Source: Deltaproteobacteria bacterium
GTDB lineage: Bacteria > Desulfobacterota > GWC2-55-46 > UBA9637 > GWC2-42-11
DNA: 64,000 nt
NCBI GenBank assembly: GCA_016223005.1
Contig: JACRPW010000044.1
Location: forward strand, 627 to 64,626
Direction: 5' to 3'
Part shown: positions 5,088 through 56,456 of the stretch, piece by piece
Position numbering within the stretch: the first letter of the stretch is position 1
Layout: the number at the start of each line of letters is the position of its first letter
Made by a program: the position numbers and the translations under genes
Notes under the pieces: model-generated
Database searches by the model: none
What the model was told of the DNA's origin: nothing
What the model saw: only the letters and a program-made list of their open reading frames with translations

Positions 5088-6479
5088 CTATCTCACATCT
5101 CCTCCAACAACTATCTCTGGTATGCGCAGTGTTGGCTGGGCATCTGAAACAGGCACACCCTGAGCATCCTTACCGCATGTGCCAATACCAAAACCTAAAT
5201 CACTGCCCACCATATCAATATCTTTCAGAACCTTTGGGCCATTCCCTGCTAATGTGGCGCCTCTCACAGGCTCTGATATTTTACCATTTTCTATGAGATA
5301 CCCCTCTGTAACCTCAAACACAAAATCACCATTTACCGTATTAACCTGCCCCCCTCCCATCTTTTTTACCAGAAGCCCCTTTTCAAGAGATGCGATTATC
5401 TCCTGCGGGCCTGTTTTACCCGGTGCAATCAGGGTATTTGTCATCCTTGGTATCGGTCTATGAAGGTAAGATTCCCGTCTGCCGTTGCCTGTAGACCTTT
5501 TCCCATCCTTCATTGCAGTAAGTCTATCATACATATAACCTTTAAGAATACCATTTTCAACAAGCACAGTCTTCTGCCCCTTTGTGCCCTCATCATCAAA
5601 AAAGAATGAACCCCGTTTATTTGGGATTGTCGCATCATCTATTACAGTTATAAGAGGGGATGCAACCTGTTCGCCAATCTTATTTGAATAGACTGAAAGG
5701 CACTGCTGTGATAAATCAGCCTCCAGTCCATGTCCTATTGCCTCATGAATCATTGTGCCGCCTGCACTGCTTGATAATATTACAGGCATCTTGCCGCCAG
5801 TCGCCATTCTTGAATTTAACAAGATAATTGCCCTTCGTGCCGCTGTTTCGGCAATCTGTTCAGGCGGCATATCTTCTAATATCTCTATACCCATGCAGCC
5901 GCCAACAGGTTCATAACCTGTTTGAAGGACATCACCCTCCACAGCAACAACATTCACAAAAAAGAGTATGCTTGTTTTATCTTCCTCTGCCCATGCACCT
6001 TCACTATTTATAACAGCCATCCTTCTTGCTCCATCACCATATACAACCTTAACCTGTTGGACCCTTTTATCTGTCCGCCTCGCTGCCATGTTTGCCCTGT
6101 TTACAATCTCAACCTTCTCTAAAAGGGGGATACTATGAGGAGGTATCTTTATAAAAAACCCTGCTGAAATATTTTTATGAGTGAGTGCAATATCCCTTTC
6201 TGTCTCTCCTTTTTTAACTGCCTGATTTACAGTTTCAGCAAGGGTAATCAGCCCTTTCTGTGAAATGTCATTTGTATATCCGTATGCGGTTTTATAATCA
6301 AATATAACCCTTATTCCGCAGCCGACATCCCTGCCAGATATAACCTTTTCAATCCTGTCTTCTTCGCAGACAATTGATGTATTTACAGTCTCTTCAAAGT
6401 ATATATCAGCAAAGTCTCCGCCTTTTTTGAGTGCAGTTTTCAGGATTTCAAACGGGTCAATACCCTTAATCAGTTCCAT
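5088..6479 (-). CDS. tldD: TldD/PmbA family metalloprotease. The listed ORF extends to 6581 but the likely start is MELIKGIDPF at 6479.
   Basis: HEAIGHGLEADL metal-binding motif. The N-terminal extension in the 6581 start has no homology and overlaps thiE. Confidence 0.85.
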   Translation of the reverse strand: MELIKGIDPFEILKTALKKGGDFADIYFEETVNTSIVCEEDRIEKVISGRDVGCGIRVIFDYKTAYGYTNDISQKGLITLAETVNQAVKKGETERDIALTHKNISAGFFIKIPPHSIPLLEKVEIVNRANMAARRTDKRVQQVKVVYGDGARRMAVINSEGAWAEEDKTSILFFVNVVAVEGDVLQTGYEPVGGCMGIEILEDMPPEQIAETAARRAIILLNSRMATGGKMPVILSSSAGGTMIHEAIGHGLEADLSQQCLSVYSNKIGEQVASPLITVIDDATIPNKRGSFFFDDEGTKGQKTVLVENGILKGYMYDRLTAMKDGKRSTGNGRRESYLHRPIPRMTNTLIAPGKTGPQEIIASLEKGLLVKKMGGGQVNTVNGDFVFEVTEGYLIENGKISEPVRGATLAGNGPKVLKDIDMVGSDLGFGIGTCGKDAQGVPVSDAQPTLRIPEIVVGGDVR

Positions 6480-32765: not shown

Positions 32766-33109
32766 AATCTAACCCTCCTGTTTTTAACAGGGTGTTGAAA
32801 AAATCTTCTCCAACGGAAAAAGTGTCATGCCCGCGAAAGCGGGCATCCAGTAACATATTGAAAAAACTGCACGTCAAAGGGGGTCAAATCTTTTCCTTTC
32901 TATGCAGGAAAAGGGGACAGATTTATTTAATTGACAGGAAAAGGGGAGACAGGAAAATCTTTTCCTTTCTATGGGGTATCCTCCTTTTATGTGTTCTTTT
33001 GGCTATGGGAAGGATACCCCTTTCTTATCTCTAACACAAACTATGATACATTACCGCTACTTTTAAAGTTTGGTATGTTTAACAATTCTGTGATAGTATT
33101 TAGCTGCGT

Positions 33110-33185
33110 CGGATTTCACCTCCCGGTATGTATTGTTGTCAGCAAAACTATACCAGATACGGCTGAAATCCGATGCACTTTTTTA
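33110..33185 (+). terminator. Intrinsic-terminator-like structure: 10-bp stem tcggatttca/tgaaatccga enclosing a sub-hairpin, followed by TTTTTT
   Basis: Inverted repeat and T-run read directly. It sits in a 600-nt gene-poor region ~235 nt upstream of the OppF-like ATPase start. Confidence 0.5.
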
Positions 33186-33419
33186 TCTCATTGATATTGC
33201 ACGGCTTTTAGTCATATGTTACACTAATACCAACTTTTTTATGAAAGAACCAACAATTTTCTCATATGAACTTGAACTTAATAATGAATTGATTAGAAAG
33301 AGCGCCTAACAATCAAATCCATGAGACGGTGCGCTAGCCCGCCTGTGATTTAAGCCGTTATTATGATAAATTATGAACGAAATAGGGGAAGTGTCCCTGT
33401 ATTTTCTGTATTTTGTAAT

Positions 33420-34409
33420 ATGGGTAACTTACTTACAATAAAAAACTTAAAAAAGCACTTCCATGTGAGCAGGGGGATATTTGATAGACACGGCAGCACA
33501 GTGTATGCTGTTGACGGTGTGGGTCTATCTGTAAAAAAGGGCGAGACCTTTGGTCTTGTCGGAGAATCAGGGTGCGGCAAATCAACACTTGCAAGGGTTG
33601 TGATGCGGCTTATAGAACCAACAGGTGGGAGTATCATCTTCGATGGTCGTGATATATCATCTCTATCGCAAAGAGAGATGATTCCGATTAGAAGAAAGGT
33701 GCAGATGATATTTCAAGACCCTTATGCATCTTTAAACCCGAGGATGACAGTTGGGGATATTATTGGAGAGGCACTTATAATACACAAACTTGCAGAAAGT
33801 AATGTTCAGAAGAATAATATTGTTGCAAAACTTATGGATGTGGTTGGTCTTCCAAAGGATTCTATAAACCGCTACCCGCATGAATTCAGCGGAGGTCAGA
33901 GACAGAGAGTCGGCATAGCAAGGGCGCTTGCAGTAAAACCTGATTTAATCATTGCAGATGAACCTATATCTGCCCTTGATGTATCTATTCAGGCACAGAT
34001 TCTAAACTTGTTACAGGATTTGCAGAAGGAATTTAATCTCACATACCTTTTTATAGCCCATGATTTAAGGGTTGTGGAGTATATAAGCGACAGGATTGCG
34101 GTTATGTATCTTGGAAAGATCGTTGAACTCGGAAATGCCAGCGATGTTTATAATCACCCTGTCCATCCATATACTGAGTCGCTTTTGTCTTCTATACCAA
34201 TACTGGGGACAGATTTGAAATCTGTCCCCACTGTCCACAAAAAAAAGAAGAGGATAATACTTAAAGGTGACATACCAAGCCCTATGAACCCGCCTTCAGG
34301 CTGTGCATTTCACACAAGGTGTATATATGCACAGGAAAGGTGCAAGATAGAAGCACCGCTGCTGACAGAAAGGGATGGAAGGGTTGCGTCATGCCACTTC
34401 CCGTTATAA
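33420..34409 (+). CDS. ABC transporter ATP-binding protein, oligopeptide/dipeptide (OppF/DppF-like) family with a Cys-containing C-terminal extension. No cognate permease is adjacent. The listed ORF starts at 33363.
   Basis: Walker A GESGCGKST, ABC signature LSGGQRQRV, Walker B IIADEP, and a C-terminal CAFHTRC...C tail. Confidence 0.85.
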   Translation: MGNLLTIKNLKKHFHVSRGIFDRHGSTVYAVDGVGLSVKKGETFGLVGESGCGKSTLARVVMRLIEPTGGSIIFDGRDISSLSQREMIPIRRKVQMIFQDPYASLNPRMTVGDIIGEALIIHKLAESNVQKNNIVAKLMDVVGLPKDSINRYPHEFSGGQRQRVGIARALAVKPDLIIADEPISALDVSIQAQILNLLQDLQKEFNLTYLFIAHDLRVVEYISDRIAVMYLGKIVELGNASDVYNHPVHPYTESLLSSIPILGTDLKSVPTVHKKKKRIILKGDIPSPMNPPSGCAFHTRCIYAQERCKIEAPLLTERDGRVASCHFPL

Positions 34410-34420
34410 GAGGAGGAAAG

Positions 34421-35392
34421 ATGAAAAAGATTATGGTTACAGGATGTGCAGGGTTTATAGGCTGCATGGTTGCGAGAAAACTACTTGATGAAGACATTCA
34501 TGTAATAGGCATTGACAATCTAAATAACTATTATGATGTAACCTTGAAAACCCATCGTCTTGATGGGTTAAAGAGGTATAAAAACTTTACATTCAATCCT
34601 CTTGATATAGAAAACCTGAAAGCTATGGAGGATATATTCAGGCACAATAATCTTCTGGCTGTTATAAATCTTGCTGCAAGGGCAGGTGTCAGATACAGCA
34701 TGGAAAATCCGCATGTCTATATGACTACCAATGCCAATGGCACATTAAATCTCCTTGAACTTATGAAAAAATATGGTATAAAAAAGATGGTCCTTGCCTC
34801 TACATCATCTCTGTATGCAGGACAGAAAATCCCATTTTCAGAAGACCTGCCTGTTAATACCCCTATTTCACCTTATGCAGCATCAAAAAAGGCGGCAGAG
34901 GTAATGGCATATACATACCATTACCTTTATGGGCTGGACATATCAGTGGTGCGGTATTTTACTGTGTATGGACCTGCAGGCAGACCTGACATGAGTATAT
35001 TCAGATTCATAAAATGGATAGACGAAGGGGTGCCTTTAGAACTGTTTGGCGATGGTTCACAAAGCAGAGACTTTACCTATATAGATGATATAGCGAATGG
35101 GACAATAAAGGGGCTTAAAAGTCTTGGATATGAAATAATAAATCTGGGCGGCGGAAAAGAGCCGACATCACTCAATTATGTAATAGATAGACTTGAAGGA
35201 TACTTAGGCAAAAAGGCTAAAATAGATTACAAACCATTTCATAAGGCTGATATGACAAAGACCGAAGCAGATATAACAAAGGCAAAGAAACTCATTGACT
35301 GGGAACCTCAGACTGACTTAGATGAAGGGTTAAAAAAGACAGTTGACTGGTATATTGAAAACAGTGATTGGCTAAAAGAAATAAAAATTTAA
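34421..35392 (+). CDS. NAD-dependent nucleotide-sugar epimerase (UDP-glucuronate 4-epimerase-like SDR). The GAGGAGG SD precedes the ATG at 34421.
   Basis: GCAGFIG Rossmann motif, YxxxK (YAASKKA), and IDNLNNYYD typical of the Cap1J/LpsL family. Confidence 0.8.
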   Translation: MKKIMVTGCAGFIGCMVARKLLDEDIHVIGIDNLNNYYDVTLKTHRLDGLKRYKNFTFNPLDIENLKAMEDIFRHNNLLAVINLAARAGVRYSMENPHVYMTTNANGTLNLLELMKKYGIKKMVLASTSSLYAGQKIPFSEDLPVNTPISPYAASKKAAEVMAYTYHYLYGLDISVVRYFTVYGPAGRPDMSIFRFIKWIDEGVPLELFGDGSQSRDFTYIDDIANGTIKGLKSLGYEIINLGGGKEPTSLNYVIDRLEGYLGKKAKIDYKPFHKADMTKTEADITKAKKLIDWEPQTDLDEGLKKTVDWYIENSDWLKEIKI

Positions 35393-35408
35393 CTGCAAGG
35401 AGTGTGCA

Positions 35409-35918
35409 ATAGATAACGAGAATATTAATTGGTATGCTGTTCATGTCAGGTCAAGACATGAGTTTAAGGTATTTGAGCATCTGACGAGGTCAGGGATAGA
35501 TACATTTCTTCCTGTAGTGGAAAGGCTTTCCAGATGGAAGGACAGGAAGAAGTTAATAGATTTCCCGCTTTTCCCGGGTTATATGTTTGTGCATATCCAA
35601 AAGGTTTATGATACCATGCTCTCTGTTCTCAAAACACCGGGTGTTGTAAGGATGCTTGGGCTTTCTGCATCTGAGCCATATCCTGTGCCTGAAGAACAAA
35701 TCATATCTTTAAAAAAACTTATTGCATGCAAGCAAGACATTGACCCTTACCCGTATCTCAAGGAAGGGAAGATGATTAGAATAAAAAGCGGGCCTTTTAA
35801 AGGCATTGAAGGAATACTTGCAAAAAAGCATGACAAACACATGCTTGTAATTTCTATTGATGTCTTACAGCGGGGTGTTGCGGTAAGAATAGCAGCATCT
35901 GATGTGGAGATGATTTAA
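35409..35918 (+). CDS. NusG-family transcription antiterminator paralog (UpxY/LoaP-like: NGN domain plus KOW). The NGN domain is encoded upstream of the listed ATG (35517). The reading frame opens at 35385 with no canonical start codon; ATA 35409 follows an AAGGAG SD.
   Basis: Upstream in-frame translation reads NINWYAVHVRSRHEFKVFEHLTRSGIDTFLPVVE (NGN motif). The C-terminus has a KOW-like GKMIRIKSGPFKGIEGIL. Confidence 0.6.
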   Translation: MDNENINWYAVHVRSRHEFKVFEHLTRSGIDTFLPVVERLSRWKDRKKLIDFPLFPGYMFVHIQKVYDTMLSVLKTPGVVRMLGLSASEPYPVPEEQIISLKKLIACKQDIDPYPYLKEGKMIRIKSGPFKGIEGILAKKHDKHMLVISIDVLQRGVAVRIAASDVEMI

Positions 35919-35952: not shown

Positions 35953-37257
35953 ATGGAATTGGTTCAGATGATTAAGTCAAAGAGTGCCAGAATTGGCATA
36001 ATTGGTCTTGGGTATGTTGGACTTCCGCTTGTTATTGAATTCTGTAAGGCAGGATTCAAGGTTACAGGCTTTGATGTGGATAATGAAAAGGTAGAACTGT
36101 TAAAACAGGGCAAGAGTTATATAAAACATATTGACTCAAAACTCATAACTCAAAACTCAAAACTCTTCATTCCAACAACCGATTTTAGTCAGTTGTCAAC
36201 TATGGACTGCATCATTATATGCGTTCCCACACCGCTGAATAAATACCGCGAACCTGATATGTCATATGTTTTTAATACAACTAAGACCATTGCGAAGTAT
36301 CTAAAAAGAGGTCAGATTATAATTCTGGAATCAACTACATATCCAGGCACAACAGATGAAGATGTAAAAGAAATACTTGAGGAATCAGGGTTAAAGGCAG
36401 GAGAGGACTTTTATCTTGCATTTTCTCCTGAGAGAGAAGACCCGAACAACAGGGATTTTTCCACAAGCACAATTCCTAAGGTTGTTGGCGGTTTCACCCC
36501 AAAATGTCTTGAGATAGCCCGAACACTTTATGACAATATAGTTGTTAAGACAGTCCCTGTTTCATCTACAAGAACTGCTGAGGCGACTAAACTCCTTGAA
36601 AATATCTATCGCGCAGTAAACATTGCCCTTGTGAATGAACTCAAAATGCTATTTGACAGGATGGGGATTGATGTATGGGAGGTAATAGAGGCATCAAAGA
36701 CAAAGCCTTTTGGCTTTCAGGCATTCTATCCGGGACCAGGACTCGGTGGGCACTGCATTCCGGTTGACCCCTTCTATCTTACATGGAAGGCGCGGGAATA
36801 TGACTTTTCAACAAGGTTTATTGAACTTGCAGGCGAGATAAATACGAATATGCCCTATTATGTTGTTCAAAGGACTATAGAGGCATTGAACGAAAGAGGT
36901 AAGAGTATAAATGGTGCAAAGGTTTTGATATTAGGGCTTGCATATAAAAAAGATGTGGATGACCCAAGAGAATCCCCGTCTTTCAGACTTATAGAGTTGT
37001 TGGAGGGAAAAGGTGCAATTGTTGATTATAATGACCCCTACATACCAAAGGCGCCAAAGATGAGAAGGCATAAGATTAATAAGGAATCTGTCCTATTAAC
37101 AAAGGAAAATCTGGCGGGATATGACTGTATTGTTATAGCGACTGACCATTCAAGTTATGATGCAGAGTTTATAGTGAATAATTCAAATCTTATAATTGAT
37201 ACCAGAAATCTTGTCGGCAAAAAAGGCATAAAGGATAGGAGGGTGGTAAAGGCATGA
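35953..37257 (+). CDS. Nucleotide-sugar dehydrogenase (UDP-glucose / UDP-N-acetylhexosamine 6-dehydrogenase family) with an in-frame ctcaaaa x5 repeat insertion (KLITQNSKLF)
   Basis: IGLGYVGLP NAD-binding motif and catalytic GGHCIPVDP. Confidence 0.85.
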   Translation: MELVQMIKSKSARIGIIGLGYVGLPLVIEFCKAGFKVTGFDVDNEKVELLKQGKSYIKHIDSKLITQNSKLFIPTTDFSQLSTMDCIIICVPTPLNKYREPDMSYVFNTTKTIAKYLKRGQIIILESTTYPGTTDEDVKEILEESGLKAGEDFYLAFSPEREDPNNRDFSTSTIPKVVGGFTPKCLEIARTLYDNIVVKTVPVSSTRTAEATKLLENIYRAVNIALVNELKMLFDRMGIDVWEVIEASKTKPFGFQAFYPGPGLGGHCIPVDPFYLTWKAREYDFSTRFIELAGEINTNMPYYVVQRTIEALNERGKSINGAKVLILGLAYKKDVDDPRESPSFRLIELLEGKGAIVDYNDPYIPKAPKMRRHKINKESVLLTKENLAGYDCIVIATDHSSYDAEFIVNNSNLIIDTRNLVGKKGIKDRRVVKA

Positions 37258-38687
37258 TAGTAAGTGAAAAGATATTCAGGGAATACGATATACGCGGAGA
37301 GGTAGGGAAAGATATTGATAGAGATATTGCTATCTCCATTGGTAAGGCATTTGCCTCTTTTGTCAGAGTGAAAATCCCTGATGCGAGGTGTGTAAGTGTT
37401 GGAAGGGATGTGAGGATAAGTTCAGATGATTTAGCATCAGGGGTAATGGAGGGGATAGCCTCTTCGGGTCTTGATGTATATGATGTCGGGGTTTGTCCAA
37501 CACCGCTTCAATACTTTTCTCTGTTTCACCTAAATCTTGATGGCGGCATAATGGTTACAGGCAGCCATAATCCGCCTGAATATAATGGCTTTAAGATAAG
37601 TATCGGCAAAGACACTATTCACGGTGAGGATATACAAAGGATAAAAGAGGAGATACTAAAAGGAGAGTCAGTGATTTCCGGAAAGATAGGAGATATTAAA
37701 AGATATAACATAACTACAGCATATAAGGACTATATGCTGAAAGAGTTTTTATATCTTAATGATTCAAGGTTTAAAAGGTTAAAGATAGTTGTAGATGCTG
37801 GTAACGGCACAGGAGGTATTGTTGCCCCTGAAATCTTAAGTGCGATAGGCTGTGAAGTGACACCGCTTTATTGCGAGCCTGATGGAAATTTTCCAAATCA
37901 TCACCCAGACCCTACAGTAGTTGAATACATACAGGATTTGATTGGCAAGACTAAAGAGTTGGGTGCAGATATGGGGGTTGGATATGATGGTGATGCTGAC
38001 AGAATTGGAATAGTAAATAGAGATGGTGGTATTGTATGGGGCGACCAATTGATGATAATCTTAAGCCGTGAGATATTAAAACAGAGAAAAGGTGCAAAGA
38101 TAATTGCTGATGTTAAATGTTCTCAAATTCTGTTTGATGATGTGAAAAACCACGGCGGCATACCGATTATGTGGAAGACAGGGCATTCACTTATAAAGCA
38201 AAAGATGCGGGATGAAGGGGCGGTTGTTGCAGGGGAATTCAGCGGACATATATTTATCAAGGACAGATATTTTGGATATGATGATGCAATCTATACTACC
38301 TTAAGACTTGTAGAAATCATGAAGAATACAGGCAGTGATATAAAGAAACTTCTTTCTGATATTCCAAATATGTATTATACACCCGAGATAAGGATTGATT
38401 GTCCTGATGAAATAAAAAAAGATGTGGTTAAACAGATTGTATCCAGATTTATAGGATATAAAAAAAATGGCGGATGTGAATATAATATTAAGGATGTGAA
38501 TACAATAGACGGCGTCAGGATTACATTTGAAAACGGGTGGGGGCTTTTAAGGACAAGCAACACACAGCCGGTAGTGGTTATGCGGGTTGAGGCAGAAGAC
38601 AAGGAGAGTTTAAACAGTTACAGGCTGTTTCTTGAGAATGAACTTAAAAATGCACCTGTCTGCCGACAGGCAGGGAGGACAGTGTAA
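37254..38687 (+). CDS. Phosphomannomutase/phosphoglucomutase (alpha-D-phosphohexomutase)
   Basis: Active-site TGSHNPPEYNGFK and the domain order of the PMM/PGM family. Confidence 0.9.
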   Translation: MIVSEKIFREYDIRGEVGKDIDRDIAISIGKAFASFVRVKIPDARCVSVGRDVRISSDDLASGVMEGIASSGLDVYDVGVCPTPLQYFSLFHLNLDGGIMVTGSHNPPEYNGFKISIGKDTIHGEDIQRIKEEILKGESVISGKIGDIKRYNITTAYKDYMLKEFLYLNDSRFKRLKIVVDAGNGTGGIVAPEILSAIGCEVTPLYCEPDGNFPNHHPDPTVVEYIQDLIGKTKELGADMGVGYDGDADRIGIVNRDGGIVWGDQLMIILSREILKQRKGAKIIADVKCSQILFDDVKNHGGIPIMWKTGHSLIKQKMRDEGAVVAGEFSGHIFIKDRYFGYDDAIYTTLRLVEIMKNTGSDIKKLLSDIPNMYYTPEIRIDCPDEIKKDVVKQIVSRFIGYKKNGGCEYNIKDVNTIDGVRITFENGWGLLRTSNTQPVVVMRVEAEDKESLNSYRLFLENELKNAPVCRQAGRTV

Positions 38688-38688
38688 G

Positions 38689-40134
38689 ATGAAGGCAATA
38701 ATCCTTGCAGGTGGAAGCGGGACAAGGCTTTGGCCCTTGTCCAGAAGGAACTATCCCAAACAGTTTCTAAAACTAAACGGCGATAAGTCCCTTCTTCAGC
38801 AGACAGTGGAAAGATTGTCAGGTGCAGTTCAACTTGAGGACATTATCGTAATGACGAACAGTAATTATAAATTCCATGTGCTGTCAGACCTTCAGGCTCT
38901 TAACTCTAAACTCTCAACTCTGAACTCTAATATCATCCTTGAACCAGCGGCAAGAAATACTGCGCCTGCTATTGCGCTAGGGGTTAAATATTGTCTTGAA
39001 AGACTCGGCTGTGATTATGATGAAATAATATTCCTGTCGCCTTCAGACCACATCATCAAACCCAATGACAAGTTCACAGAATACCTTGCATCTGCAAAGG
39101 CTATTGCAGAGAAAGGCTATATAGTAACATTTGGGATAAAACCGGATAGACCTGAGACAGGATATGGATATATAAAAGTCAGAAGTCAGGAGCCTGCCCC
39201 CGCAGGCTTCAATCGGGGGTCAGAAGTCAGAAGTCAGGAATTCTTGAGAGTTGAAAGGTTTGTGGAAAAACCAGATGTAGAGACTGCAAGACGTTATTTA
39301 GATGAAGGGAATTACTACTGGAATTCAGGCATGTTTGCATTCAGTATAGGCACAATGATTAAGGAATTTGAAAGACATGCACCGGCAATAAGTAATATGC
39401 TAACTAAAAGTTTTGACGAGATGCTGTCAAACTTTAAGGATATGCCTGATGTATCCATAGACTACGCTGTAGCAGAAAAATCAAAGGATGTTGTAACAGT
39501 CCCCCTTGATTTATACTGGAATGACATTGGCTCATGGGATTCATTGTGTGATGTTATGGATAAGGATGAAGATGGAAATATCAAAAAGGGTGATGTTATT
39601 GCTATAGACACAAAAAATACCCTGATAATAGGAAATAAAAGGCTTATATCAACCATTGGACTTAATGACTGTCTTATAGTTGAAACTGACGATGCTGTGC
39701 TTATAGCAAGAAAAGGAGAGACTCAAAAGGTTAAAGATATAGTTAGAAAGTTAAAGGCAGATGGCAGAAAAGAGGCAGAAGAACATGTTACCACATATAG
39801 GCCATGGGGCAGTTATACAGTGCTTGAAGAGGGGGAGCGGTATAAGATAAAAAGGATTGTTGTTTACCCAAATAAAAAGTTAAGCCTGCAGATGCACCAT
39901 CACAGGAGCGAACACTGGGTTGTTGTGAAAGGAACTGCACGGGTGACAGTTGGCGATATAAAAAGGACTATCCATGAAAACGAATCTGCATATGTCCCTA
40001 AATCAACTGTCCATAGACTTGAAAACCCCGGCAAAGTGCCTCTAGAGATAATAGAGGTTCAAAATGGTGAATATGTTGGAGAAGATGATATTGTGAGGGT
40101 TGATGATGATTATGGGAGACAAAAACTTACTTGA
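38689..40134 (+). CDS. manC: Mannose-1-phosphate guanylyltransferase / mannose-6-phosphate isomerase (ManC type, cupin C-terminus). It carries an in-frame insertion of a heptamer/mini-palindrome element.
   Basis: MKAIILAGGSGTRLWPLSR N-terminus and C-terminal cupin. The ORF listed from 38632 is an upstream extension overlapping the PMM gene. Confidence 0.88.
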   Translation: MKAIILAGGSGTRLWPLSRRNYPKQFLKLNGDKSLLQQTVERLSGAVQLEDIIVMTNSNYKFHVLSDLQALNSKLSTLNSNIILEPAARNTAPAIALGVKYCLERLGCDYDEIIFLSPSDHIIKPNDKFTEYLASAKAIAEKGYIVTFGIKPDRPETGYGYIKVRSQEPAPAGFNRGSEVRSQEFLRVERFVEKPDVETARRYLDEGNYYWNSGMFAFSIGTMIKEFERHAPAISNMLTKSFDEMLSNFKDMPDVSIDYAVAEKSKDVVTVPLDLYWNDIGSWDSLCDVMDKDEDGNIKKGDVIAIDTKNTLIIGNKRLISTIGLNDCLIVETDDAVLIARKGETQKVKDIVRKLKADGRKEAEEHVTTYRPWGSYTVLEEGERYKIKRIVVYPNKKLSLQMHHHRSEHWVVVKGTARVTVGDIKRTIHENESAYVPKSTVHRLENPGKVPLEIIEVQNGEYVGEDDIVRVDDDYGRQKLT

Positions 40135-40260: not shown

Positions 40261-41613
40261 ATGTTTGATGGATTAAGTGATAGATTAAACAGTATATTTA
40301 AAAGGCTTAAGGGATACGGAAGGCTGTCTGAGGTAAACATTCAAGAGGCGCTCAAGGATGTCAGGATGTCACTTCTTGAGGCTGATGTCAATTTCAAGGT
40401 TGTAAAGGACTTTATTCAGAAGGTTAAGGATAGGGCAGTTGGCAAAGATGTGTTAGACAGCCTGACACCGGGGCAGCAGATTGTTAAGATTGTCAGAGAT
40501 GAACTCACAGATATACTCGGCGGTACTGTATCATCTCTTAACCTCGGGACAAAACCGCCTGCAGTAATTATGTTAGTTGGGCTTCAGGGTTCAGGAAAAA
40601 CAACCACAGCAGCAAAACTCGCAAGGCATCTGCGTGGGAAAGGCAGGAGACCCTATCTTGTTCCGGCTGATGTGTATAGACCTGCTGCAATCCTGCAGCT
40701 GAGGAAACTATCTAAAGAAATAGATATAGATGTGTTTGAAGACGATGCCTTTAAAATGCCTCAGGATATATGCCATGAGGCACTCAGGATTGCCAAAATA
40801 AAAGGTTATGATACTGTCATTATTGATACAGCAGGCAGGCTGCATATTGACAAATCCCTTATGGATGAATTAAAGGACTTAAAAGAAATACTAAATCCTA
40901 AAGAGATACTCTTTGTTGCAGATGCAATGACAGGACAGGATGCTGTGAACACAGCAGCAGGATTTAACAGCGATATTGACATTACAGGTGTTATTCTTAC
41001 AAAACTAGATGGTGATGCAAGGGGTGGTGCGGCACTTTCTATGGTGACTGTCACCGGAAAACCCATAAAGTTTATTGGAGCAGGGGAAAAGGTTGATGCT
41101 ATTGAGGTTTTCTATCCTGATAGACTCGCAGGCAGGATACTTGGTATGGGTGATGTCCTTACGCTCATTGAAAAGGCAGAGGCAGTAGTTGATAAAGAAA
41201 AGGCAAAGATTATGGAAGAGAAACTCCGCAAGAATTTATTTACACTTGAGGATTTTAAGGAGCAGTTAAGTCAGATAAAAAAAATAGGGTCTTTGGAGAG
41301 CATACTTTCAATGGTGCCTGGTTTTAAACAAATTAAGATGACCCGCGATGTTAATCCTGATCCTAAAGAACTTGTGAGGATAGAGGCGATAATAAATTCC
41401 ATGACAATGAAGGAAAGGGTAAAGCCTGATATCCTTAATGCCAGTAGGAAAAAACGGATAGCAAATGGAAGCGGCACAACTGTTCAGGATGTTAATAAAC
41501 TTATAAAGCAATATCTTCAGGCAAGACAGATGATGAAGAAATTTGCTAATATAGGTCCAAAGGCAATGACGGGGCAGGCATTAAAGGTTTTGAGGGGTGG
41601 CATGCCGTTTTAA
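40261..41613 (+). CDS. ffh: Signal recognition particle protein Ffh
   Basis: NG domain GLQGSGKTTT and Met-rich M domain. Confidence 0.97.
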   Translation: MFDGLSDRLNSIFKRLKGYGRLSEVNIQEALKDVRMSLLEADVNFKVVKDFIQKVKDRAVGKDVLDSLTPGQQIVKIVRDELTDILGGTVSSLNLGTKPPAVIMLVGLQGSGKTTTAAKLARHLRGKGRRPYLVPADVYRPAAILQLRKLSKEIDIDVFEDDAFKMPQDICHEALRIAKIKGYDTVIIDTAGRLHIDKSLMDELKDLKEILNPKEILFVADAMTGQDAVNTAAGFNSDIDITGVILTKLDGDARGGAALSMVTVTGKPIKFIGAGEKVDAIEVFYPDRLAGRILGMGDVLTLIEKAEAVVDKEKAKIMEEKLRKNLFTLEDFKEQLSQIKKIGSLESILSMVPGFKQIKMTRDVNPDPKELVRIEAIINSMTMKERVKPDILNASRKKRIANGSGTTVQDVNKLIKQYLQARQMMKKFANIGPKAMTGQALKVLRGGMPF

Positions 41614-49403: not shown

Positions 49404-49479
49404 TGGAGCGGGCGACGGGATTCGAACCCGCGACCCCAACCTTGGCAAGGTTGTGCTCTACCAGCTGAGCTACACCCGC
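49404..49479 (-). tRNA. tRNA-Gly (anticodon GCC), CCA encoded
   Basis: The reverse complement folds as a cloverleaf: GCGGGUG acceptor, anticodon loop UUGCCAA, T-loop GGUUCGAAUCC. Confidence 0.9.
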
Positions 49480-56164: not shown

Positions 56165-56255
56165 GGAGAGATGTCCGAGCGGCCGAAGGAGCACGACTGG
56201 AAATCGTGTGTGCGCTAATACCGTACCGAGGGTTCAAATCCCTCTCTCTCCGCCA
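56165..56255 (+). tRNA. tRNA-Ser (anticodon GGA) with a long variable arm, CCA encoded
   Basis: GGAGAGA/TCTCTCC acceptor, anticodon loop CUGGAAA, T-arm GAGGGTTCAAATCCCTC. Confidence 0.9.
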
Positions 56256-56348: not shown

Positions 56349-56456
56349 TTGATAGCCGGGTCTTGCGCAGCGGTTAGGTTGCGAACCCCGCCAGGTCCGG
56401 AAGGAAGCAACGGCAGTAACTCTATTCCGGGTGCCGCAAGTCTGCCTGGCTATCAA
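56349..56456 (+). ncRNA. ffs: Signal recognition particle RNA (4.5S/ffs, small bacterial type)
   Basis: Conserved domain IV motif CCAGGUCCGGAAGGAAGCA. The terminal helix is gatagcc...ggctatc. It has the conserved position immediately upstream of dnaX. Confidence 0.85.

Follow-up and report, generated by a model that had tools for sequence, protein, structure and literature searches.

Results and discussion

Gene order at the locus

The window, by which we mean the whole stretch of 64,000 nucleotides analysed here (contig JACRPW010000044.1, from a deltaproteobacterium), carries a gene for a NusG paralog of the UpxY family, referred to below as upxY. It stands third in a tight, co-directional run, without a separate leader. 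The genes of the run are as follows:

33420..34409, forward strand: OppF/DppF-like ABC ATPase, first of the co-directional run (NF008453, 409 bits); syntenic in the related locus L001
34421..35392, forward strand: SDR-family NAD-dependent sugar epimerase/dehydratase (Pfam Epimerase and GDP_Man_Dehyd; NCBIfam)
35409..35918, forward strand: UpxY-family NusG paralog as read from the proposed start, 169 codons and the stop TAA at 35916-35918
35953..37257, forward strand: nucleotide-sugar dehydrogenase (TIGR03026, 445 bits)
37254..38687, forward strand: PMM/PGM (NF046027, 484 bits, under its cutoff of 600)
38689..40134, forward strand: ManC GMP/PMI (TIGR01479, 588 bits)

The gaps are 11 nt between the ATPase and epimerase genes, 16 nt between the epimerase gene and upxY and 34 nt between upxY and the dehydrogenase gene, and past manC lie ffh and rpsP. 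An earlier note on this DNA placed the NusG paralog at the head of the cluster, with the epimerase, dehydrogenase, PMM and manC genes following. The last three do follow it, but the epimerase gene (34421-35392) lies upstream, as does the ATPase gene, and upxY therefore does not head the run.

The sole sizeable non-coding stretch of the block is a region of 650 nt (32766-33420) ahead of the ATPase gene, which contains a promoter-like site (32931-32958) and a weak terminator-like hairpin (33382-33400). Comparison of this region with the L001 locus revealed no similarity.

The protein encoded by upxY

The window protein belongs to the UpxY family of specialised NusG paralogs and is built from an NGN and a KOW domain. 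Among the NCBIfam models for UpxY, RfaH, LoaP and housekeeping NusG, that for UpxY (NF033644) is the only one passed, with 130.4 bits (cutoff 100) and with residues 8-164 lying on model positions 1-162 of 164. The RfaH models TIGR01955 (83.6 bits, cutoff 144.5) and NF006534 (63.6 bits, cutoff 124), the LoaP model NF033641 (77.7 bits, cutoff 125) and the housekeeping NusG model TIGR00922 (50.8 bits, cutoff 135.7) are not passed. The UpxY-type character originally suggested for the protein is borne out. Pfam matches the NusG NGN domain at E = 7e-23 and gives no KOW match at E < 0.01. The AlphaFold2 model (pLDDT 86.9, pTM 0.79) comprises an NGN domain at residues 6-106 and a five-strand, KOW-type barrel at 121-168, and the best PDB matches found for it by Foldseek are NusG and RfaH chains, RfaH complexes included. 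The gene does not lie in a secE-nusG-rplK context, and the nearest homologs, which are annotated as UpxY-family or NusG proteins, belong to Thermodesulfovibrionales and Nitrospirota MAGs and to Dissulfurispira thermophila, a cultivable member of the Thermodesulfovibrionia whose ortholog (P0006) is 68% identical.

Specialised NusG paralogs act against pausing and termination in long operons for polysaccharides or secondary metabolites, and the UpxY proteins are operon-specific antiterminators that are recruited at ops sites in the leader (PMC7819879, PMC11685472). By analogy, the window protein probably works like UpxY or RfaH.

An ops-like site or UpxY-target hairpin had been proposed for the 5' leader of upxY. 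Since the upstream genes adjoin at gaps of 11 and 16 nt, there is no directly upstream leader that could hold such an element, and neither the RfaH nor the Bacteroides type of ops motif was found. The 12-nt RfaH ops sequence GGCGGTAGnnTG has no match in the window with one mismatch or fewer; the matches that do occur all carry two mismatches and are at chance level (32, against 22 +/- 4.6 expected). The Bacteroides-type GCGNAGC is absent from the 500 nt upstream of the gene in the window, in L001 and in most orthologs. K-mers enriched upstream of the orthologs were considered as recruitment elements and discarded, as they belong to conserved upstream coding genes and not to leaders. An Rfam scan of the window returned an SRP RNA and two tRNAs, all located elsewhere, and nothing near upxY. 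The recruitment site may be lineage-specific and of another sequence.

The start region and its conservation

Direct reading of the window places a TAA stop at 35382-35384, after which the upxY frame is open from 35385. The codons from this point are AAA TTT AAC TGC AAG GAG TGT GCA ATA (35409) GAT AAC GAG, and they continue with AAT ATT (35424) AAT TGG (35430) TAT GCT GTT CAT GTC. The features of the region are:

35390..35392, forward strand: stop codon TAA of the epimerase/dehydratase gene, 16 nt ahead of the ATA
35397..35402, forward strand: Shine-Dalgarno (SD) sequence AAGGAG, 6 nt (TGTGCA) from the ATA by direct reading
35409..35411, forward strand: ATA, put forward as the initiation codon and situated 7 codons ahead of the W in WYAVHV
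35424..35426, forward strand: ATT, an alternative near-cognate start, 2 codons before the W and also present in L001

The upxY frame contains no ATG, GTG or TTG ahead of 35517, which bears out the earlier note both in the lack of a canonical start between 35385 and the NGN domain and in the AAGGAG placed 6 nt ahead of the ATA. The codon at 35517 is, however, a GTG and not the ATG that it had been taken for, and the earliest in-frame ATG is at 35583. Three boundaries agree that the NGN domain begins upstream of any canonical start: the Pfam alignment of the domain opens at residue 7 when the protein is read from the ATA, the first position of the NCBIfam UpxY model is the W at 35430, and strand beta1 of the AlphaFold2 model spans residues 6-13, so that the NGN profile and the onset of beta1 fall at 35424-35430. 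A run of 15 start-less codons has a chance of about 0.5; what gives weight to the absent start is therefore the position of the domain boundary, together with conservation between species, rather than the length of the run.

Three short contigs from three sequencing runs (L002-L004) have the same DNA as the window over the start region, the ATA included; in the protein search they are represented by a truncated gene call of 133 aa (P0002), which is 99% identical to the window protein. The L001 locus comes from another project and a second species, and its protein (P0001) has 80% amino acid identity to that of the window. The gene order at L001 is that of the window (ABC ATPase, epimerase, NusG paralog, NDP-sugar dehydrogenase, PMM, ManC), and the syntenic epimerase/dehydratases are 82% identical. 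Apart from P0001 and P0002, the protein search yielded no relative above 75% identity.

The start region of L001 reads TAA CCCT AAGGAG TCTGCAT ATA GAT AGA GAG AAT ATT AAT TGG, with the TAA at 6023-6025 and the ATA at 6043, a layout like that of the window. The AAGGAG is kept, as are both the ATA and the ATT, and a 1-nt insertion makes the spacer 7 nt rather than 6 nt. As a result, the upxY frame is shifted from that of the epimerase gene by +1 in the window and by -1 in L001. In the window it meets a stop 9 codons ahead of the ATA, and in L001 it reaches back to a TTG within the epimerase gene, which the gene caller used; P0001 is thus a spurious, TTG-extended gene call of 183 aa for the L001 ortholog. 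Because the spacer indel makes the upstream frame differ between the species, nothing upstream is coding in both, which confines the start to the interval from the SD sequence to the W, where ATA and ATT are the only near-cognate codons.

Only two species are found to carry the ATA start, and the clade is small. The pattern ENINWYAVH, with which further members of this clade were sought in the JGI metagenomes, gave no matches there, and the pattern HEFKV[FY]EHL gave one chance match (L060) that is not a NusG gene.

Assignment of the start codon

Canonical starts, ATG or GTG, lie 2-20 codons before the W in all of the approximately 50 orthologs retrieved from reference genomes. In two of them (L066 and L067) the region reads GGAGG-CTGCGCA-ATG GAT AAT GAA ... 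TGG TAT, and in the DNA alignment the ATA of the window is paired with this ATG, the SD sequence, the spacer, the start and the next three codons all matching up. Seven codons before the W stand an ATG in L017 and a GTG in L038, with a one-codon offset in the DNA alignment. Two family members, L061 and L063, are without a nearby canonical start. The exact 169-aa product of an ATA start is present at NCBI as MBI5682565.1, a "UpxY family transcription antiterminator" whose start was called by an automated, homology-guided choice.

The lack of a canonical start is genuine and is shared by the two species, and the GenBank/NCBI annotation already uses the ATA. We consider it likely that translation of upxY begins at the ATA at 35409. 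This codon is favoured over the ATT by its distance of 6-7 nt from the SD sequence, as against 21-22 nt for the ATT, by its positional homology with the ATG of L066 and L067, by the starts of L017 and L038, which equally lie 7 codons before the W, and by the NCBI product that begins there, the ATT-started product being absent from the protein collection searched.

A start at the ATT at 35424, which would give a protein of 164 residues beginning M-N-W-Y-A-V and would leave the ATA and the following four codons as a 5' untranslated spacer, appears unlikely. This codon is common to the window and L001, and AUU is the best documented of the natural non-canonical starts of bacteria, as in infC and pcnB (PMC5499595). 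Moreover, the family member P0085 begins MNWYAVHV, which makes a lead of two residues before the W viable. The five codons from ATA to ATT show no synonymous changes between the window and L001 and hence carry no coding signal of their own. Against this reading, the ATT has no SD sequence of its own and its distance from the only one present is far beyond functional spacing, the orthologous ATG with its SD sequence and spacer aligns with the ATA instead, and no indel falls in the 15 nt that separate ATA from ATT, whereas the 16 nt upstream of the ATA contain one.

Far less probable still is a sequencing or assembly error, or the decay of a pseudogene, in which a change from ATG to ATA would have inactivated upxY. 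A single G-to-A change from an ancestral ATG would indeed yield ATA, and gene callers without homology guidance shorten upxY to the 133 aa of P0002. The ATA base is, however, the same in four assemblies of the window's population and in the second species from another project, the SD sequence is conserved, and the upxY open reading frame is intact in both species. The substitution rates between the window and L001, estimated by the Nei-Gojobori method, are also at odds with a pseudogene:

NusG paralog, whole gene: dN/dS 0.19, dS 0.57
36 codons upstream of the GTG at 35517: dN/dS 0.41, dS 0.29
Epimerase: dN/dS 0.16, dS 0.68
NDP-sugar dehydrogenase: dN/dS 0.10, dS 0.94

A dN/dS of 0.19 at a dS of 0.57 points to purifying selection throughout the divergence, and judging from these substitutions the whole upxY gene, its start-less part included, has been under such selection since the species split. 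Error and pseudogene are rejected on these grounds (the identity of L002-L004, the ATA of L001 and the dN/dS value), and of the two possibilities raised by the earlier note, a rare-start gene or a local error, it is a rare start at the ATA that the comparative evidence upholds.

An epimerase-NusG fusion made by programmed frameshifting, for which the 8 nt shared by the upxY frame and the end of the epimerase gene (35385-35392) might speak, and a protein of 133 residues begun at the GTG at 35517, the first canonical start in the frame, are together just as improbable. A conserved fusion is rejected because the two species would need different shifts, +1 for the window and -1 for L001, and the stop at 35382 leaves 8 nt for it, with no slippery motif. 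The GTG start is rejected because, in the AlphaFold model, it would strip the NGN fold of beta1, alpha1 and beta2, because the 36 codons before it rank, at 95% nucleotide identity, with the best conserved parts of the block, and because none of the approximately 50 orthologs starts at this position. Orthologs with an NGN domain beginning at 35517 are the observation that the earlier note had named as decisive against its proposal, and the proposal survives this check. Taken jointly, the error, pseudogene, fusion and truncated forms remain very unlikely.

A model for AUA initiation

In the model favoured here, with translation starting at the ATA, a functional NusG paralog of the UpxY family, 169 residues in length, would be made from 35409-35918. 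The initiation context is favourable, in that it combines a consensus SD sequence, optimal spacing, a nearby upstream stop and no significant RNA structure, folding of the region being close to that of shuffled sequence (z-scores of -0.2 and +1.5). Initiation at the AUA would be driven by the AAGGAG sequence at its optimal spacing of 6 nt and probably aided by ribosomes that finish the epimerase gene at its stop, 16 nt upstream, through a translational coupling suggested by the relatives and by E. coli. A tightly adjoining upstream gene is also found in the orthologs L065, L066 and L067. The AUA itself would be the descendant of an ancestral AUG by a third-position change from G to A, kept in at least two species.

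Two of the three positions of AUA pair with the anticodon of the initiator tRNA. In E. coli reporters AUA supports approximately 1-2% of the initiation seen with AUG (bioRxiv 10.1101/063800), and in vitro, within a good mRNA context, it can be efficient and competes well (PMC5499595). By analogy with E. coli, an AUA start may lead to low-level synthesis, which would suit a regulator of which little is needed. The NGN domain of the protein would then, as in its characterised relatives, bind the elongating RNA polymerase and lessen pausing or termination in polysaccharide-related operons.

AUA may have been selected as a weak start or may be merely tolerated. We are doubtful that the conserved AUA, 16 nt past the epimerase stop, serves as a device of regulation that keeps the antiterminator sub-stoichiometric, and is not simply a mutation that has been tolerated. 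Were it such a device, synthesis of the antiterminator would depend on translation of the epimerase gene and on the stringency of start codon selection (IF3 level, ppGpp, nutrient state), and read-through of the polysaccharide operon would be tied to the growth state. In that case, the family members L061 and L063 would suggest that weak starts have been selected repeatedly within this family of regulators.

Implications for gene annotation

AUA is among the rarest of annotated bacterial start codons, accounting for roughly 0.01% of annotated starts. Genes that begin with it are missed by ab initio callers, which in the present case produced the 133-aa stump P0002 and the spurious 183-aa P0001. 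The locus makes a clean comparative case: its SD sequence, spacer and start line up with those of orthologs that begin at ATG, an indel that breaks the frame lies just upstream, and the homology-guided GenBank call is borne out. The upxY gene of the window is, furthermore, a concrete candidate for AUA initiation outside the model organisms. Its start codon aside, it encodes an ordinary specialised NusG paralog and opens no new mechanism.

Comparison with known systems

Among the closest known counterparts is the UpxY family of the capsular-polysaccharide operons of Bacteroides (NF033644; PMC11685472). The window protein, like those of Bacteroides, scores above the family cutoff over the full length of the model, and the two have in common the NGN and KOW architecture and an association with sugar or polysaccharide genes; the orthologs of the window upxY in Thermodesulfovibrionales and Nitrospirota MAGs likewise precede polysaccharide-type genes. 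There are, nevertheless, clear differences. In Bacteroides, upxY is the first gene of its operon and follows a leader with an ops-type site for pausing and recruitment, whereas in the window it is third and has no such leader, and the ops-type sequence YGCGNAGCR does not occur upstream of it. The gene directly downstream is that for the inhibitor UpxZ in Bacteroides and that for the NDP-sugar dehydrogenase (TIGR03026) in the window. The Bacteroidales homologs, which belong to a different phylum, are approximately 32% identical to the window protein, and the window gene differs in its ATA start. The window gene thus passes the sequence test for UpxY but is without the operon-level hallmarks of the Bacteroides system.

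RfaH (TIGR01955) and LoaP (NF033641) share the two-domain fold, though the window protein scores below the cutoffs of both. By analogy, a common mode of action may be presumed, in which the NGN domain sits on the clamp of RNA polymerase and brings about processive antipausing or antitermination. In autoinhibited RfaH the C-terminal domain is an alpha-hairpin, whereas that of the window protein is modelled as a beta-barrel.

In a passage of PMC5499595 that cites 10.1101/063800, natural non-canonical starts are put at approximately 0.004-0.024% of annotated starts. Among them are the AUU starts of infC and pcnB in E. coli and rare annotated AUA, AUC and CUG starts. The start of infC and pcnB is AUU where that of the window upxY is probably AUA, conserved in two species only, and infC follows an autoregulatory logic through IF3 for which no counterpart is known in upxY. 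What the three genes have in common is a near-cognate AUN start, preceded by a good SD sequence, in a gene for a regulatory protein of presumably low abundance.

Conservation at the 5'-end of the NusG paralog

Comparison of the NusG paralog (upxY family) with its counterpart in L001, a second species with the same gene order, shows 93-95% nucleotide identity over window positions 35408-35481, the first ~25 codons, within a block that is 79% identical as a whole. Synonymous divergence is also lower at this end, with a dS of 0.29 in the first 36 codons and 0.67 in the remainder of the gene. This high 5'-identity may reflect selection acting on the initiation region or may be due to chance, the latter being possible because several further 60-nt windows are as highly conserved.

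Start codons in other family members

Two further upxY-like genes, P0087 (L061:1313-1966) and P0034 (L063:1501-2085), have no canonical start codon close to the NGN domain. In P0087 the only near candidates are ATT codons lying 12 and 7 codons before the tryptophan that begins the domain, and the closest ATG is 47 codons upstream. P0034 has an ATA 11 codons and an ATT 5 codons before this residue, and no canonical start lies closer than the TTG found 39 codons upstream; a GGG aligns with the ATG of its close relative in L065. Non-canonical starts may recur in the family, or these two genes may carry long N-terminal extensions.

The ortholog P0097 (L064:182-670) has lost the codons for YAVHVKS through a ~20-nt deletion, which shifts the frame inside the NGN domain, and the gene caller has placed its start at an internal TTG; either it is a pseudogene carrying a frameshift or the sequence is misassembled here.

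Small, non-biosynthetic genes lie directly 3' of the upxY-like gene in several orthologous loci (L061-L064). These are nucleotidyltransferase genes in L062 and L063, accompanied by a HEPN-type (HepT) gene in L063 but not L062, and a 23S_rRNA_IVP/bAvd four-helix-bundle gene in L061 and L064.

Genomic context

The non-coding region and the structural RNAs matched by Rfam in the window (one small SRP RNA and two tRNAs) are as follows:

32766-33420, non-coding region of 650 nt upstream of the ABC ATPase gene
32827-32846, strong GC hairpin, terminator-like on the minus strand
32886-32904 and 32955-32973, perfect direct repeat of 19 nt
33382-33400, weak terminator-like hairpin immediately 5' of the ATPase start
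49407-49479, tRNA
56165-56252, tRNA
56354-56454, small SRP RNA

The non-coding region also carries repeated 'caggaaaagggga' units; its repeats and hairpins are not conserved in L001. The SRP RNA lies ~15 kb downstream of ffh (40261-41613).

Directly 5' of the sugar genes is a single OppF/DppF-type ABC ATPase gene (33420-34409), with no permease or binding-protein gene in its vicinity. L001 has two OppF/DppF-type ATPase genes at the equivalent place, likewise without transporter partners; in both the window and L001, orphan ATPases thus accompany the nucleotide-sugar operon, a conserved association.
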